A stretch of DNA of 59,986 nt, taken from assembly GCA_039798065.1 (NCBI GenBank), contig JBDKGS010000002.1, positions 1 to 59,986 of the forward strand, in the 5' to 3' direction. The stretch's first letter is position 1. Every line of letters starts with the position of its first letter. The stretch comes from Fibrobacterota bacterium. GTDB lineage: Bacteria; Fibrobacterota; Fibrobacteria; UBA5070. Shown here in pieces: positions 1-15,479 of the stretch. Under the pieces are notes generated by a model. That model did not search any database, was not told where the DNA came from, and was given only the letters and a program-made list of their open reading frames with translations. The position numbers and the translations under genes were made by a program.

Positions 1-1
1 A

Positions 2-598
2 GTCATGCCGCGGATCTTCGAGCCCTTCTTCACCACAAAAGGTCCTGGCAAAGGGACCGGCCTCGGGCTTTCCGTGGTCCATGGAATCATCCACAACCAC
101 AAGGGTTCGATCACCGTCTCCAGCGAGATCGGAAAAGGAACGACCTTCGAAATCCTCCTTCCGGCCCTGAGCCGAGACAGCGTTGTCGACATCCAGGAAT
201 CCACGAGGTTCGAGCAAGTACGCACCAAAAAGCCGGTCATGGTCGTCGACGACGAAGAGGCTGTCGCCGATGTGCTCCATCACCTGCTGGACATGCTCGG
301 ATACTCCTCGGAGGTGTTCCTCAATCCACTGGAGGCCCTGCGAGCGTTTGGACAAGATCCGTCGAAGTGGTCGATCGTGGTCAGCGACTACACCATGCCC
401 GACATGACCGGTGAGCAGTTCGTGGAGGCCGTCCGGAAGCTCCGTGCCGACGTGCCCATCCTTCTCACCAGCGGCTACGAAAGCCATGGCCAGTCCGAAA
501 TGATCGCGCGGCTTTCCGTCAGCGCGTTCATCGCCAAGCCGTTCCAGACAGAGGATCTCGCTCGGACGCTGTCCAGCTGCCTATCTTCGGGGCAATGA
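2..598 (+). CDS. Hybrid sensor histidine kinase, C-terminal part (HATPase_c plus receiver domain); 5' end lies outside the window
   Basis: The reading frame is open to the window edge. It has a '[12 protein letters not shown]' G2-box followed by 'VMVVDDEE...DYTMPDMTG...ILLTSGY' receiver signatures. Confidence 0.85.
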
Positions 599-1743
599 GG
601 TTTTCGCTCCGAACCGACAATCCGGCAGGAAGTTCGCATAGGTTGATCGAACGGATGGATCTGTGCCGTTCGACAAAATCCGTTCGGTTGGATCTCTCCC
701 TCACCGATCCCACGGGTTGGCCCGATCGCGCCGAGCTGGAACGACAATGTTTGTCGTATTTGTCCGATCCCGGCTCCAACCGCTACTGCCCCGATTCCCA
801 GGGCCTGGAATCCACTCGACGAATTCTGTCCGAATGGACCCACGGCCGCGTCCCCGGACAGGATTGGTTCTTGTGCGCCAGCACCAGCGAAGCCTACGGC
901 ATCCTGTTCCAGCTTTTGTGCGACCCCGGCGAAAAAGTGGTCGTCAACCGGCCCAGCTATCCCCTACTCGACGACCTTGCCCGTCACGGCGGCATTGGTC
1001 TGGTCGATGTTCCATTGCGGCTGTTGGGCACCCAATGGCATCTGGACATCGGTAGATTGGAACAGGCGTTCCGAGATCCTGCCGTGAAAGCTTTTTGCCT
1101 GATCCAACCCGGAAACCCGACTGGTTGGTTCCTGGGTCCTGCCGAACGTTCCAAGGTTGTGGCCCTGTGCGCAAAACACAAGGTGGCACTGATTTCCGAC
1201 GAAGTTTTTGCCGATTACACCTACCAAGACGGATACAACTCCCTTCTTGGTGAAACTGAATGCCTCACCTTTGCCCTCTCGGGGCTATCCAAAGGCTTTG
1301 GGCTTCCTGGCTTCAAGATGGGCTGGATTGCCATGTCCGGGCCCCGCCTACCCCTGTCTGAGGCTCGAGAACGTCTACAAAGACTGAATGACAGTCTATT
1401 GTCGGCCTCTACTCCGGTTCAGCATGCCCTCAAACATTTGATTCCGCTTTCCACCTCGCTAAGAGCCCCCATTTTATCGCGACTGGAATCCAACAGAAGG
1501 CTTTGGATGGATTTGAATCGCCAGAAGGAAGCTTTTCTTCCTGTACCGGCTGGATGGATGGGCGTGGTTCGTTTGGCCCCTGGTACCGAAGAGCCATACT
1601 GCGATTCTCTATTGGATCAAGGAATTTTGGTTCAACCTGGTTTTTTGTTTGACTTGCCCTGGGACGGTGTGGTAGTGTCGCTACTAGCAGAGCCTGAGGT
1701 TTTCCAAGAAGGTCTCTCTGTTCTTCAAGTATTAGTTGTTTAA
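595..1743 (+). CDS. PLP-dependent aminotransferase, class I/II
   Basis: 382-aa ORF with 'NPTGW', 'SDEVFADY' and '[17 protein letters not shown]' (SxSK PLP-lysine region). Its ATG overlaps the upstream stop (ATGA). Confidence 0.8.
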
Positions 1744-1773
1744 TCTCTTAAGAACTTGAAGTAGAACTAGGCC

Positions 1774-2081
1774 TGTGGATTGGCAGGGAAAGCGCGATTT
1801 TGGGTCAAAAAGCCCTATCCACATGGGTTGGATTGACACGGAAATCACATTGTCAGGATTGGGATTTGGGATAACAAGTTATCCGTGGCAGTGTGGATTC
1901 AGAGTTGTGGATAATCTGGGGTTTTTTCCTTGGACTATCCACCGACATCGATTGGTTTTACAGGTCAATTCACAACCGATTTGCCCTCAAAACGGTCATT
2001 GAACGCAAAAAACCCTCTCGGAGGAGATCCGAAAGGGTTTAAAGGGTTTATCCGTGAAATGTGGATAAGTTGTGTGGAGAA
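1774..2081. promoter_or_regulatory. DnaA-box cluster (candidate oriC or DnaA-titrating locus)
   Basis: Matches to TTATCCACA/TGTGGATAA. Two are 9/9 (TGTGGATAA at 1906-1914 and 2060-2068). Two are 8/9 (CTATCCACA 1815-1823, TGTGGAGAA 2073-2081). At least six are 7/9 (1774-1782, 1866-1874, 1879-1887, 1892-1900, 1935-1943, 2048-2056). An AT-rich stretch lies at 1741-1770. Confidence 0.6.
2005..2040 (-). terminator. Rho-independent terminator of the atp operon
   Basis: The minus strand reads AAACCCTTTCGGA-tctcc-TCCGAGAGGGTTT followed by TTTTTT (13-bp stem with 1 mismatch). It lies about 80 nt downstream of the atpC stop. Confidence 0.7.
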
Positions 2082-2120
2082 GTGGTGGAACCCGGTGGGG
2101 ATCGGACCTCTTCGAGCTTA

Positions 2121-4883
<2,763 letters not shown>

Positions 4884-12076: not shown

Positions 12077-12702
12077 GATTCAGCCTGGTTCGTTAAGGTC
12101 TTGGCAGTGACCAAGTTACGGAGGCCTTCCTCTCCGGGGAGGCGGTACGGAACATAGGACAGCGGAAAGTAGCCGTCAATTTCCGCAACTTGTTCGTCGT
12201 GCTTGTAGGTCACAAAATGACCGCCCGGAACAAGGAACGGTAGAGCGCGTTTTGCGTCTTCGGGAATGCTCCCCACGGCGCGGCAACTCACGACTTGGCA
12301 CTTGGCCCGGATGTCGGGGAAGGTCTGGATCAGCTCGACTTTGGAGCGAAGGATTCGCACGTTGGTCAGCCCAAGGTCGACGGACATCTTCTGGAGATGC
12401 TGCGCTCGGAGACTGCGAGGTTCCACTCCCACGAACTTCCAATGGGGGAGAGCGATGGCCAACGGGAACAACGGAAAGCCTGCACCCGATCCAAAGTCCA
12501 ACCACTGACCCGGCACATCCAACTGAAGTTCTTCCGAGACGATCAAGGGCGCCAGTGAATCTTGGATGTGCTTGGCGAACAGATCGGGGAGATCCACACT
12601 GCTCACCAGGTTCTGGGACTGACTCGCCTTGCGCGTCAAACTGCTCAACTTCTGAAGCGTTGCATGAGCGGCGGCAGGAATGGGAGGCTGCGAATGTTTC
12701 AC
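12073..12702 (-). CDS. rsmG: 16S rRNA (guanine527-N7)-methyltransferase RsmG (GidB)
   Basis: 209 aa with the SAM motif 'WLDFGSGAGFPLFPLAI' and a 4-nt overlap with parA. The GTG start lies inside parS-1. Confidence 0.85.
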   Translation of the reverse strand: MKHSQPPIPAAAHATLQKLSSLTRKASQSQNLVSSVDLPDLFAKHIQDSLAPLIVSEELQLDVPGQWLDFGSGAGFPLFPLAIALPHWKFVGVEPRSLRAQHLQKMSVDLGLTNVRILRSKVELIQTFPDIRAKCQVVSCRAVGSIPEDAKRALPFLVPGGHFVTYKHDEQVAEIDGYFPLSYVPYRLPGEEGLRNLVTAKTLTNQAES

Positions 12703-12710
12703 GTGAAACC
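12695..12710. promoter_or_regulatory. parS: parS site 1 (ParB-binding centromere-like site)
   Basis: TGTTTCACGTGAAACC matches the consensus TGTTNCACGTGAAACA at 15/16 positions. It overlaps the rsmG start codon. Confidence 0.85.
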
Positions 12711-12853
12711 AATCTGAAGGAAGATCTCGATCCGCACCGCGGACTCGTTGCTTCCCACAAAGATGATCTCACTTCTGGAGATGGGGGAGGGCGACCTCCA
12801 CTTCCCACTCAACTTCCCTCAAGAAACTTCTCCACCCACCCTTCACCCTCCCA

Positions 12854-12869
12854 TGTTCCACGTGAAACC
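12854..12869. promoter_or_regulatory. parS: parS site 2
   Basis: TGTTCCACGTGAAACC (15/16). Confidence 0.85.
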
Positions 12870-12968
12870 TCTCCGGTATTTGTCCCTGACGGATTTGCGG
12901 GTGGGGAGAGTTTGTCTGTCCGCTGGCATGTGCCCATGCACGCTCCCAGCCAATCTCTCCCCACCCGC
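12854..12968 (+). repeat. parS-hairpin module, copy A
   Basis: parS, then a ~27-nt pyrimidine-rich spacer, then a 72-nt hairpin. The outer stem is GCGGGTGGGGAGAG (12897-12910) paired with CTCTCCCCACCCGC (12955-12968). The conserved loop is TGTCTGTCCGCTGG-GCATG-tgcc-CATGC-ACGCTCCCAGCC. Confidence 0.8.
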
Positions 12969-13118
12969 TGTCGCCAGGTTCCCAGCCTTCAATTTCGCCG
13001 CCTACAGAAGAACGATGGGTCGGCCTCTTCTTGTGCAACCGAATCATGGGTGCTGGAAGAATGGTGGAAAGGTGGGGGAGTGGATGCCTCTCGCCAGGTT
13101 CCAGAGATGTCTTTCGCA

Positions 13119-13134
13119 TGTTCCACGTGAAACC
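13119..13134. promoter_or_regulatory. parS: parS site 3
   Basis: TGTTCCACGTGAAACC (15/16). Confidence 0.85.
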
Positions 13135-13235
13135 TTTCCCGTCGTTTGGTCTTTACCGGTTTTGCGGGAGGGGTGAGCTTGTCTGTCCGCTGGCGTGAAC
13201 ACACGCACGCTACCAGTCAAGCTCACCCCTCCCGC
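13119..13235 (+). repeat. parS-hairpin module, copy B
   Basis: Same layout as copy A. The 18-bp outer stem is GCGGGAGGGGTGAGCTTG (13164-13181) paired with CAAGCTCACCCCTCCCGC (13218-13235). The inner hairpin is changed compensatorily to GCGTG-aaca-CACGC. Confidence 0.8.
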
Positions 13236-13732
13236 GAGTCTCAGGTTTTCGATCCATGGAAGATCTCCATCCAGTTACGCGAAGGAGGGAAGCCTGACCA
13301 AATGATGGGGGAGCCTAATCTTAGGGAAGACGTGCGGTCGTACTCGAAGCGAGGTGGTCACCTCTAGAGAACGTTGGCTGAGCTGTCTCGGTGAAGAGGG
13401 GGAAGTGTCTGCCAGAATAGGATGAGGGGAGTGGCGGTAGCCTCCTCAACTCAGTTTGATTTCCGACGACCCAAGGCGCTGATCCCACCCCAAAGAGATC
13501 TCCACCTGATGGATGATGAAGCGCATCTCAGATGCCACACCCATCCCCCTAAGAGTTCGGAATCCGATCTCCAAGTAGTAGGGGAGATGACCTCCCAAAA
13601 CTTGGCTCAGTGGAACACGGTCTTGTCGGATCATGCTCCGAAACGAGTCGATTCTCCAACGATCCAAACATCCTGAAGTAGAAGGGGACGCATACTCTCC
13701 ACCTCCTTCATCCTTTCGTTTGCCCCCTCCAA

Positions 13733-13748
13733 TGTTCCACGTGAAACC
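13733..13748. promoter_or_regulatory. parS: parS site 4
   Basis: TGTTCCACGTGAAACC (15/16). Confidence 0.85.
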
Positions 13749-13846
13749 TTCTCCGGTTTTTCCTCGCCAACTTTCCGGGGTGGGAGGAGGATGTCTGTCC
13801 GCAGGCATGAGCACATGCACGCTCCCAGCCACCCTCCTCCCACTCC
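13733..13846 (+). repeat. parS-hairpin module, copy C
   Basis: The outer stem GGGGTGGGAGGAGGAT (13777-13792) pairs with ACCCTCCTCCCACTCC (13831-13846): 14 Watson-Crick pairs, 1 G-U and 1 mismatch. The inner hairpin is GCATG-agca-CATGC. Confidence 0.75.
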
Positions 13847-13988
13847 TCGAACTTGGATGCACCAACCTGAACGACCGACCATTCACCTGACTCTACACGC
13901 TCCACCTTAAACCCGGGTATCCAGTCCAAGGGATCTCTCAGATAGGTGAGGGAAGTGGGGGTGAGGTGGAGAGGTCGCCTCCTTATGC

Positions 13989-14004
13989 TGTTCCACGTGA
14001 AACC
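13989..14004. promoter_or_regulatory. parS: parS site 5
   Basis: TGTTCCACGTGAAACC (15/16). Confidence 0.85.
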
Positions 14005-14102
14005 TTTCTCGGGTTTCCCTCTCCAACTTTCCGGGGTAGGAGGAAGATGTCTGTCCGCTGGCATGAACACATGCACGCTCCCAGCCATCCTCCACCCACC
14101 CC
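13989..14102 (+). repeat. parS-hairpin module, copy D
   Basis: The outer stem GGGGTAGGAGGAAGATG (14033-14049) pairs with CATCCTCCACCCACCCC (14086-14102) at 14/17 positions. The inner hairpin is GCATG-aaca-CATGC. Confidence 0.7.
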
Positions 14103-14657
14103 TCAAGCGGATGCTTCCCTAAGTGAACCTCAAGACTTCATACCTCCCGCAACCCAGACTTCCAGCCGCCAACTTCCCACTCCTCAACCCTTTCATTCAT
14201 CATTCCCGAAAAGGGCGAGGCACCCAAAGGGTGCCAATGCCCGACAAACCGAAACATGAGTGGGGGATCCCGAAGGGGGTCGCGGTCATGGAGTGCCGCC
14301 AACCAGACCATCGGCCGCCCTTCGACTTCGCTCAGGGACCGAGGCCGATGGGTGAGAATCCCGTTGTGGCGGCACGTAAGTAGCGACCCTCTTGGGTCCG
14401 GCAATCCAAAGGGCCCGGACTGGCCCTTTGGTGCCGAGGGGGTCCAGAGGGGCAGCGGCATGAGCGGCCCCTGTGAAACGGAAAGCCCAGACGCCAGTCT
14501 GAGAAAGACAAAACTGTCGGAGACAAACCTGAAAGGACAAAGCGAAGCGCACCGGGGTCCGGGGCCAAAGCCCCGGAGAAGGGGTAGCCGCAGGCTCCCG
14601 CCACGGGAGTGAATACCCAACGGCGGAGCCGAAAGCTAGGGGGAGACGTCCCCCTCC

Positions 14658-15479
14658 CTATTGTTCCACGTGAAACAATCGCTTGTGAAAGAACCCAAAG
14701 TGCCAGCTCGGCGTCGCTTCGATCAGCGGGCGGAAGTCCTGGTCCAAGAGGAGATCCCAGTGGGCGATCACATCCGGGGAATAACGCTGAAGGCGAAGTT
14801 GGTAGGAGGAAGGTCCCGGCAACAAGGTCCCGGTCCAAATCTCGGGAGCGATGCCTTCACACCAAAGTCGGGGGAGCGGGGTGACCTGGGTGGAGTGACC
14901 CATCCACGTTCCGGGGACCCCTTGGGTGGGTGGTCGTTGGTCGGCCAGAAAGGCGACGAGTCCATTCCGACGGAGAGTCTTGTGCGCGGCGCGGACTCCG
15001 GTCTGGTTGTAGAGGACCGGGGTCTTGTGGAATCGACGGACGTGTTCCAGGAGGAGTTGACCGGGACGTTGGTGAGCGGCGCGGGCCACACCGATACAGT
15101 CGGGTCGCAGGTGGAAGAGGATTCCGGCGAGCCACTCCCAGTTGCCGTGATGCATGGAAAGGAAGAGAGCCGGTCGTCCGGTCTGGGTCCAAGTGGAGGA
15201 GATCTGGGACAGGGGAGTGAGGTCGAGGCGGTTCCATCCACCGGTCAGGAGGAGGACGGCTTCGCGCAAAGCATTGCGAAAAAGTTGGCGGGGGAGGTTG
15301 CTCGGAGGATGGGGGAGAACGGATTGGGCGAGGAGAGCGATTTCGGAATTGCGGGGAATGGGCAACCAGCGCCCTAACGGGGAGGTCAACGCGAGGAGGA
15401 TGCGTTGGGTGAGAGACGGTCGGAAGGGGAGGTCGACGACCAGGGTCTCGAGGGGTGTGAAAGGAGAGGTCGTGGTCAT
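14658..15479 (-). CDS. LpxL/HtrB-family lipid A (lysophospholipid) acyltransferase
   Basis: 273 aa with 'SMHHGNWEW' (the HxxxxE/D acyltransferase motif as in HtrB/MsbB). The length is typical. Confidence 0.65.
   Translation of the reverse strand: MTTTSPFTPLETLVVDLPFRPSLTQRILLALTSPLGRWLPIPRNSEIALLAQSVLPHPPSNLPRQLFRNALREAVLLLTGGWNRLDLTPLSQISSTWTQTGRPALFLSMHHGNWEWLAGILFHLRPDCIGVARAAHQRPGQLLLEHVRRFHKTPVLYNQTGVRAAHKTLRRNGLVAFLADQRPPTQGVPGTWMGHSTQVTPLPRLWCEGIAPEIWTGTLLPGPSSYQLRLQRYSPDVIAHWDLLLDQDFRPLIEATPSWHFGFFHKRLFHVEQ
14662..14677. promoter_or_regulatory. parS: parS site 6
   Basis: TGTTCCACGTGAAACA matches 16/16, identical to the classic Bacillus subtilis parS. It lies in the last codons of the acyltransferase gene. 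Confidence 0.9.

Follow-up and report, generated by a model that had tools for sequence, protein, structure and literature searches.

A probable chromosomal replication origin beside atpC, with converging flanking genes, in a family of uncultured Fibrobacterota

The spacer between an aminotransferase gene and atpC in this Fibrobacterota bacterium is very likely its chromosomal replication origin (oriC), predicted to be monopartite and DnaA-dependent, with an unwinding element at one edge. Judged by its sequence and that of its relatives, it is very probably a DnaA-type origin of the ordinary kind whose place is unusual and specific to the family, far from dnaA and with the genes on both sides reading in. 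The spacer contains a cluster of DnaA boxes that is conserved and rigidly spaced in relatives, it is edged by an AT-rich tract, and its position coincides with a switch in strand composition. An initial annotation of this DNA had proposed an oriC in a convergent setting, with a DnaA-titrating or -reactivating locus (datA or DARS-like) and a relocated origin as alternatives. The proposal is supported by a skew minimum at the orthologous spacer of a relative, by the spacer's rank as the top box cluster, and by the lack of a cluster beside dnaA.

The window, by which we mean the whole 59,986-bp stretch that was analysed, is contig C2 of a 4.40-Mb draft genome (G000) in 417 contigs that is 81.6% complete; its genes were called with a self-trained codon log-odds model. 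The spacer occupies exactly positions 1744-2120 (377 bp), with a GC content of 0.46 vs 0.605 genome-wide. DnaA boxes were counted as matches to the consensus TTATCCACA with at most two mismatches in nine positions. The features on which the argument draws are as follows.

595-1743, plus strand: aminotransferase gene (stop codon 1741-1743), left flank of the spacer.
1719-1770: AT-rich candidate DNA-unwinding element (DUE), overlapping the last codons and stop of the aminotransferase gene; GC 23-27% in 30-45-bp windows.
1759-1770, plus strand: DnaA-trio-like run AAG TAG AAC TAG (four NAN triplets), followed by a 3-nt spacer GCC (1771-1773) and then a box.
1774-1782, minus strand: DUE-proximal DnaA box TGTGGATTG (7/9), nearly invariant across the family.
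1783-1791: 9-mer GCAGGGAAA, joined directly to the box at 1774-1782 and invariant in the alignment.
1815-1823, plus strand: DnaA box CTATCCACA (8/9), 32 bp past the CAGGGAAA motif in most genus members.
1829-1844: second copy of a composite element, TGGATTGACACGGAAA, 53 bp past the first copy (1776-1791); direct repeat D1.
1866: DnaA box, 7/9 match to the consensus.
1879-1887, plus strand: variant box TTATCCGTG (6/9), 96 bp past CAGGGAAA; position kept in the relatives G001, G002, G007 and G009.
1892-1914, minus strand: tandem DnaA boxes TGTGGATTC (1892, 7/9) and TGTGGATAA (1906, perfect), 5 bp apart.
1935-1943, plus strand: DnaA box CTATCCACC (7/9); relatives carry TTATCCACA or TTATCCACC there.
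2010-2040, minus strand: intrinsic terminator of the atp operon, a 13-pair stem followed by a T run (inverted repeat I2).
2048-2081: three-box module TTATCCGTG-AAA-TGTGGATAA-GTTG-TGTGGAGAA, in the atp 3' untranslated region.
2060: DnaA box, perfect match to the consensus (in the module).
2073: DnaA box, 8/9 match to the consensus (in the module).
2121-2513, minus strand: atpC (stop codon 2121-2123), right flank of the spacer.
12695-14677: six parS sites upstream of rsmG-parA-parB; 13 matches on two strands vs 1.3 expected.

The box cluster described in the initial annotation is real, and its size was somewhat overstated: in place of at least ten boxes, six of them 7/9 matches, we find eight, namely two perfect, two 8/9 and four 7/9. 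The additional 7/9 boxes counted there are probably the two copies of TTATCCGTG at 1879 and 2048, which match at 6/9 and are conserved; this 9-mer occurs seven times in the genome, twice in the spacer. From genome-wide rates, 0.53 boxes with at most two mismatches would be expected in the spacer (eight found; P about 1e-3, corrected for all windows) and 0.025 with at most one (four found; P about 2e-4, likewise corrected). Perfect boxes are scarce in this genome: base composition predicts about 14 for the whole 4.4-Mb draft, which has only five, two of them in the spacer. Overall, the spacer is the best 400-bp box cluster in the draft, scoring 16 vs 10 for the runner-up, with the reservation that at 81.6% completeness a competing cluster could sit in unassembled DNA. 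GATC sites number two in the 377 bp (5.3 per kb, vs 7.5 per kb in the window), so an enrichment of the E. coli SeqA/Dam type is not seen.

The AT-rich edge that had been noted by eye is extreme. The 45-mer at 1719-1763 has a GC content of 26.7%, which places it among the lowest 0.022% of all the genome's 45-bp windows, and it ends 3-10 nt from a box, the arrangement looked for at the sequence level in an oriC unwinding element. An AT-rich tract is found at the same place in all relatives aligned. DnaA-trios are defined as at least three NAN trinucleotides within 16 bp of a box on its 5' side (PMC8287927). The box-proximal TAG is present in every aligned member of the family; three or more consecutive trios are found in this genome, in G004 and G008 and at both loci of G006, and only one or two in G001, G002, G007, G009, G010 and G011. 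A pattern of this kind carries little information.

This left edge is also the best-conserved block of the spacer, reading AT-rich tract, TAG, three GC-rich bases and then TGTGGATTGGCAGGGAAA. The 17-nt element GTGGAYTGRCAGGGAAA occurs once in the draft. The core signature, unique in the draft, turns up in 9 of the 11 other family genomes, in both genera, and always downstream of atpC; its 3-mismatch matches outside the family were dismissed as chance, as they fall within coding sequence and have no boxes around them. More broadly, the order aminotransferase-spacer-atpC recurs in genomes of the same genus with box positions and orientations kept. Of 10 genomes of the genus, 8 have a cluster of boxes with at most one mismatch each downstream of atpC. 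The cluster is weaker in the sister genus; it was not found in the same-genus genomes G003 and G005, nor in the other families searched. The suggestion of a relocated origin is compatible with the data; the atpC-side cluster was seen only in this family, and the core signature has its real matches only there. One relative, G006, carries two different atpC-plus-origin loci (contigs C176 and C301) whose AtpC proteins are 79% and 61% identical to the query, and this bin is probably a mixture of two strains or two species within the genus.

Besides the canonical boxes, the core contains non-canonical elements at fixed distances. A direct repeat is made up of TGGATTGGCAGGGAAA and TGGATTGACACGGAAA, 53 bp apart, and this spacing is kept in 9 of 10 genus loci (8 of 9 genomes), with CAAGGAAA at that place in G009. 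In most genus members the spacing is rigid throughout, with CAGGGAAA at 0, CTATCCACA at +32, CACGGAAA at +53 and TWTCCGTG at +96. The conserved TWTCCSTG sites of the core are CAGGGAAA, CACGGAAA and TTATCCGTG, which in most members of the genus lie at offsets of 0, +53 and +96 bp; the spacer contains four such sites vs 0.04 expected.

GC skew supports an origin at this position. Whole-genome evidence comes from relatives, above all the complete genome of the same-genus G007 (a single contig of 5,836,944 bp, with the orthologous spacer at about 1,300,812-1,301,103) and also G002 and G009, and for the lineage itself from local flanks. The skew test recommended in the initial annotation has a clear outcome: the minimum falls on the orthologous spacer in G007. 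There, 37 of 40 5-kb bins are negative from 1.10 Mb to 1,300,000, and 39 of 40 are positive from 1,300,001 to 1.50 Mb. In 20-kb samples of the same chromosome nearly all bins are positive from 1.30 to about 4.2 Mb and nearly all others negative; the opposite switch, at about 4.2-4.3 Mb, lies about 2.9 Mb from the spacer, as expected for the terminus. The same minus-to-plus switch is found in G002, where it coincides with the origin core at 405 kb and holds for 100 kb on each side; in G009 it is weaker. The switch is repeated in the flanks of our own lineage, where the skew is -0.052 in the window's own left part and +0.054 over the 58 kb on the spacer's right. To the left it is -0.045 over the 9.6 kb available in L120, a metagenome contig (SRR26425191; window positions 1-2798; 98.9% identical to C2, and 98.9-99.4% with C312 and C384 taken in) that joins C2 leftwards to C312 (reversed), with C384 beyond it. 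On that side L120 carries eight genes, a series for histidine kinases and response regulators, and all eight read towards the spacer. Contigs nearly identical to this DNA also occur in SRR33038212 and SRR35185577.

We considered whether the skew is an artefact of gene orientation and rejected this. In the right replichore of G007 it is +0.036 for plus-strand and +0.053 for minus-strand genes, and in the left replichore -0.049 and -0.031, respectively; since genes on both strands share the sign of their replichore, the skew comes from replication and not from gene orientation. Two low-GC islands (G007 C1:1,350,001-1,365,000 and 1,435,001-1,445,000; 41-49% GC vs about 61%) lie within 50-140 kb of the G007 origin and are probably acquired DNA. 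The parS cluster, which had been placed 10.6 kb from the spacer, was recovered as the six sites listed above and marks the region as origin-proximal, with parS sites and parAB within 11-13 kb of the spacer. This proximity, and the direction of both G007 rRNA operons (below), which agrees with forks starting at 1.30 Mb, are two checks on the origin that make no use of skew.

Might the spacer instead be a DnaA-titrating or -regulating cluster, of the datA, DARS or B. subtilis type, that merely lies near the true origin? Such clusters do exist near origins in other bacteria, a convergent setting at two 3' ends is atypical of origins, and the skew resolves position only to a few kb. Against this, the skew of G007 changes sign between one bin that ends at 1,300,000 and the next, from 1,300,001, with the spacer beginning at about 1,300,812, and the 40 kb around that switch contain no other perfect box. 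In addition, the spacer comes with an extreme AT-rich tract of its own, next to a box, and no cluster in the draft is stronger. We therefore regard a titration locus as improbable; as an account of the whole spacer the datA/DARS alternative does not fit, and it could apply only to the module at 2048-2081.

The setting is unusual, and an origin here has to be reconciled with it. The flanking genes do converge on the spacer, as had been reported: the aminotransferase gene is on the plus strand, and atpC closes a minus-strand array running rsmG-parA-parB-...-atpC (40 of 50 gene calls in the window are on the minus strand). Genes are head-on for about 40 kb on both sides (window 2121-59986; G007 1.26-1.34 Mb), the whole rsmG-parAB-atp array included, and in the 40 kb to either side of the G007 origin about 75% of coding sequence is head-on. 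Head-on flanks that include the highly expressed atp operon are unusual beside an origin and count against the oriC reading. In G007, however, gene co-orientation is just 50% and 58% in the two replichores, and gene orientation in single 20-kb windows takes values between 0 and 100% in all parts of the genome. With so weak a strand bias and so wide a range, a head-on patch at the origin is not exceptional in this lineage.

The same convergence, extending about 40 kb to each side, is what could suggest that the site is the replication terminus and that GC skew polarity is reversed in the lineage. Both rRNA operons of G007 (72,428, minus strand; 2,978,857, plus strand) run in the direction of forks that start at 1.30 Mb and would be head-on if forks ended there, overall gene co-orientation would drop below 50%, parS sites and parAB adjoin the site, and the site is the top DnaA-box cluster; with 20-kb windows at 0 to 100% all over G007, the local head-on patch carries little weight. 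On rRNA operon orientation, overall co-orientation, parS sites and the box cluster we rejected the terminus reading, which we consider extremely unlikely.

Transcription enters the spacer differently from its two sides. The atp terminator divides the origin core from the atpC-proximal boxes, and the boxes at 2048, 2060 and 2073 lie between it and the atpC stop codon, just as the initial annotation had placed them. On the other side, no terminator of the type scanned follows the aminotransferase stop codon, and the single weak hairpin on that strand (1696-1716) is inside the gene; aminotransferase transcripts should therefore probably enter the DUE. The aminotransferase gene itself has weak codon-usage support (log-odds 16 vs 35-210 in its neighbours), and its 3' end is AT-rich from about 1600, with the final codons inside the AT-rich tract. 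The 9-mer TATTAGTTG stands at both ends of the spacer (1730-1738 and 2119-2127), where it overlaps each flanking gene's 3' end; by our estimate, chance alone would give one such repeat about one time in three.

Many bacteria use DnaA as a transcription factor, and the boxes could in principle be sites through which it regulates the flanking genes; one or two boxes upstream of the second dnaA gene (below) would fit autoregulation of this kind. Both neighbours of the spacer end there and do not start there, though, and in 1500-2400 we found no sigma-70-like promoter (nor any known RNA family), so this explanation is very unlikely.

As had been stated, no dnaA gene is in the window; the genome has two, elsewhere. 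DnaA-1 is split over contig ends (C82:3-842, minus strand, and C222:3-1319, plus strand) and has the base-contacting motif RDHSTV. DnaA-2, at C52:16067-17476 (minus strand; equivalent to L003:979-2388), has RDYSTV, and one perfect box lies upstream of it (C52:17541). Both paralogs are full-length and carry the DnaA_N, AAA+ and C-terminal helix-turn-helix domains, and two full-length DnaA paralogs were found in 41 of 41 genomes of the class searched. The motif of DnaA-1 is the canonical RDHSTV across the class, and that of DnaA-2 is RDYSTV in the two sequences read (G000 and G007). In G007 the dnaA genes, at 513,890 and 1,820,247, are 787 and 519 kb from the origin, and neither is at a skew switch. 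Beside dnaA-1 there is no box cluster in the 30 class genomes examined, and no box with at most one mismatch. The comparison of box density at dnaA that had been called for thus gives dnaA flanks without a cluster and, anywhere in the draft, none stronger than the spacer; box clusters flanking dnaA or between dnaA and dnaN, the mark of dnaA-linked origins of the B. subtilis type, were not found.

The differing RDYSTV and RDHSTV motifs, together with the conserved TWTCCSTG sites, raise the idea of a two-initiator origin, with DnaA-1 acting on one class of site and DnaA-2 on the other (TTATCCACA boxes vs TWTCCSTG sites). We consider this doubtful.

The right-hand module at 2048-2081 is best described as a predicted accessory DnaA-binding unit outside the conserved core. 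Its boxes are oriented forward, reverse, reverse, as in E. coli DARS1 (read from NC_000913.3 813107-813141), the core of which is TTATCCACT-ATTCC-TGTGGATAA-CCA-TGTGTATTA in NC_000913.3. A second copy, TTATCCACG-AAA-TGTGGATAA-GGG-TGTGGAAAA, lies at C180:7567-7600 of the same draft and is its second-best box cluster; this copy too lies between converging genes, on the downstream side of a hypothetical gene that itself comes after a FabF-like gene. Within the family, the module is in the spacer of only G000, G001 and G006, and the spacers of G007 and G009 lack it. With the search pattern used, the module is rare in the phylum (7 of 296 genomes), and as an ancient shared element it was therefore rejected.

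A refinement that is compatible with an origin here would make the spacer composite, with an origin core at 1719-1975 and, past the atp terminator, a separate DARS-like module that reactivates DnaA. The orientation pattern of the DARS1 core and the perfect consensus of box II (PMC6868365) speak for it, as does the C180 copy, which stands alone, and the G007 and G009 spacers indicate that the core does not need the module. In DARS, however, the gap between boxes I and II is 5 bp and highly conserved (PMC6868365), whereas it is 3 bp (AAA) in both copies here; box I in the spacer copy matches at only 6/9, and the module is confined to three close family genomes and rare in the phylum. We rate the refinement as possible but less likely than not.

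From these features we infer that DnaA binds, unwinds and fires the origin at the spacer, in steps that may be sketched as follows. DnaA would bind the conserved canonical boxes at 1774-1943. From the box TGTGGATTG (1774-1782) it may extend a filament over the GCC spacer to the triplets TAG/AAC/TAG/AAG and into the AT-rich tract at 1719-1770, opening the duplex. Helicase would load at the opened tract, and two forks would leave, one to the left and one to the right. The atp terminator would keep atp transcription out of the core, and aminotransferase transcription probably runs into the unwinding element.

Comparison with E. coli oriC, which lies between mnmG (gidA) and mioC, is informative. 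Both origins are monopartite and unlinked to dnaA, both lie beside an rsmG-atp gene block, and both have a neighbouring gene transcribed into them (mioC in E. coli). In E. coli the DUE is followed by box R1, reading TGTGGATAA; here, too, the unwinding element is at one edge and is followed by a box on the same strand, reading TGTGGATTG. They differ in that this origin is at the atpC end, with rsmG-parAB-atp read towards it and head-on to the forks, in that GATC sites are not enriched, and in having another box arrangement together with the conserved non-canonical elements GCAGGGAAA, CACGGAAA and TTATCCGTG.

The left edge resembles the basal unwinding system of B. subtilis and others (PMC8287927; PMC6669920) in having a box within 3 nt of a NAN run whose proximal trio is TAG (3'-GAT-5'), with the trios 5' of the box on their strand, as the system requires (a 5' tail with trios; PMC8287927), and an AT-rich tract beyond. 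Unlike that system, it has a single recognisable box by the trios in place of a tandem pair, some relatives do not keep three or more trios in a row, and the origin is not between dnaA and dnaN. The E. coli DARS1/DARS2 core (PMC6868365) is matched by the module at 2048-2081 only, in having three boxes, the first opposed and the middle one perfect; apart from its shorter gap, the module differs in lying inside an origin spacer and in its narrow distribution. Origins linked to dnaA-dnaN, such as that of Melioribacter roseus in the neighbouring Bacteroidetes/Chlorobi group (PMC3534657), likewise have boxes at the GC-skew transition; they differ from the present one in that dnaA-1 has no adjacent box cluster in this class and the G007 origin is 519 kb and 787 kb from the dnaA genes.

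If the spacer is oriC, as is very likely, a replication origin has been placed for a family of uncultured bacteria in which the shortcut of looking beside dnaA fails. The core signature would let the origin be located in draft genomes of the family, and an origin so located helps in ordering contigs, in estimating growth rates from read depth (peak-to-trough ratio) and in reading strand bias. The family would also offer a natural example of an origin with head-on flanks that include the ATP synthase operon and with rigidly spaced non-canonical elements, in a lineage with two DnaA paralogs.
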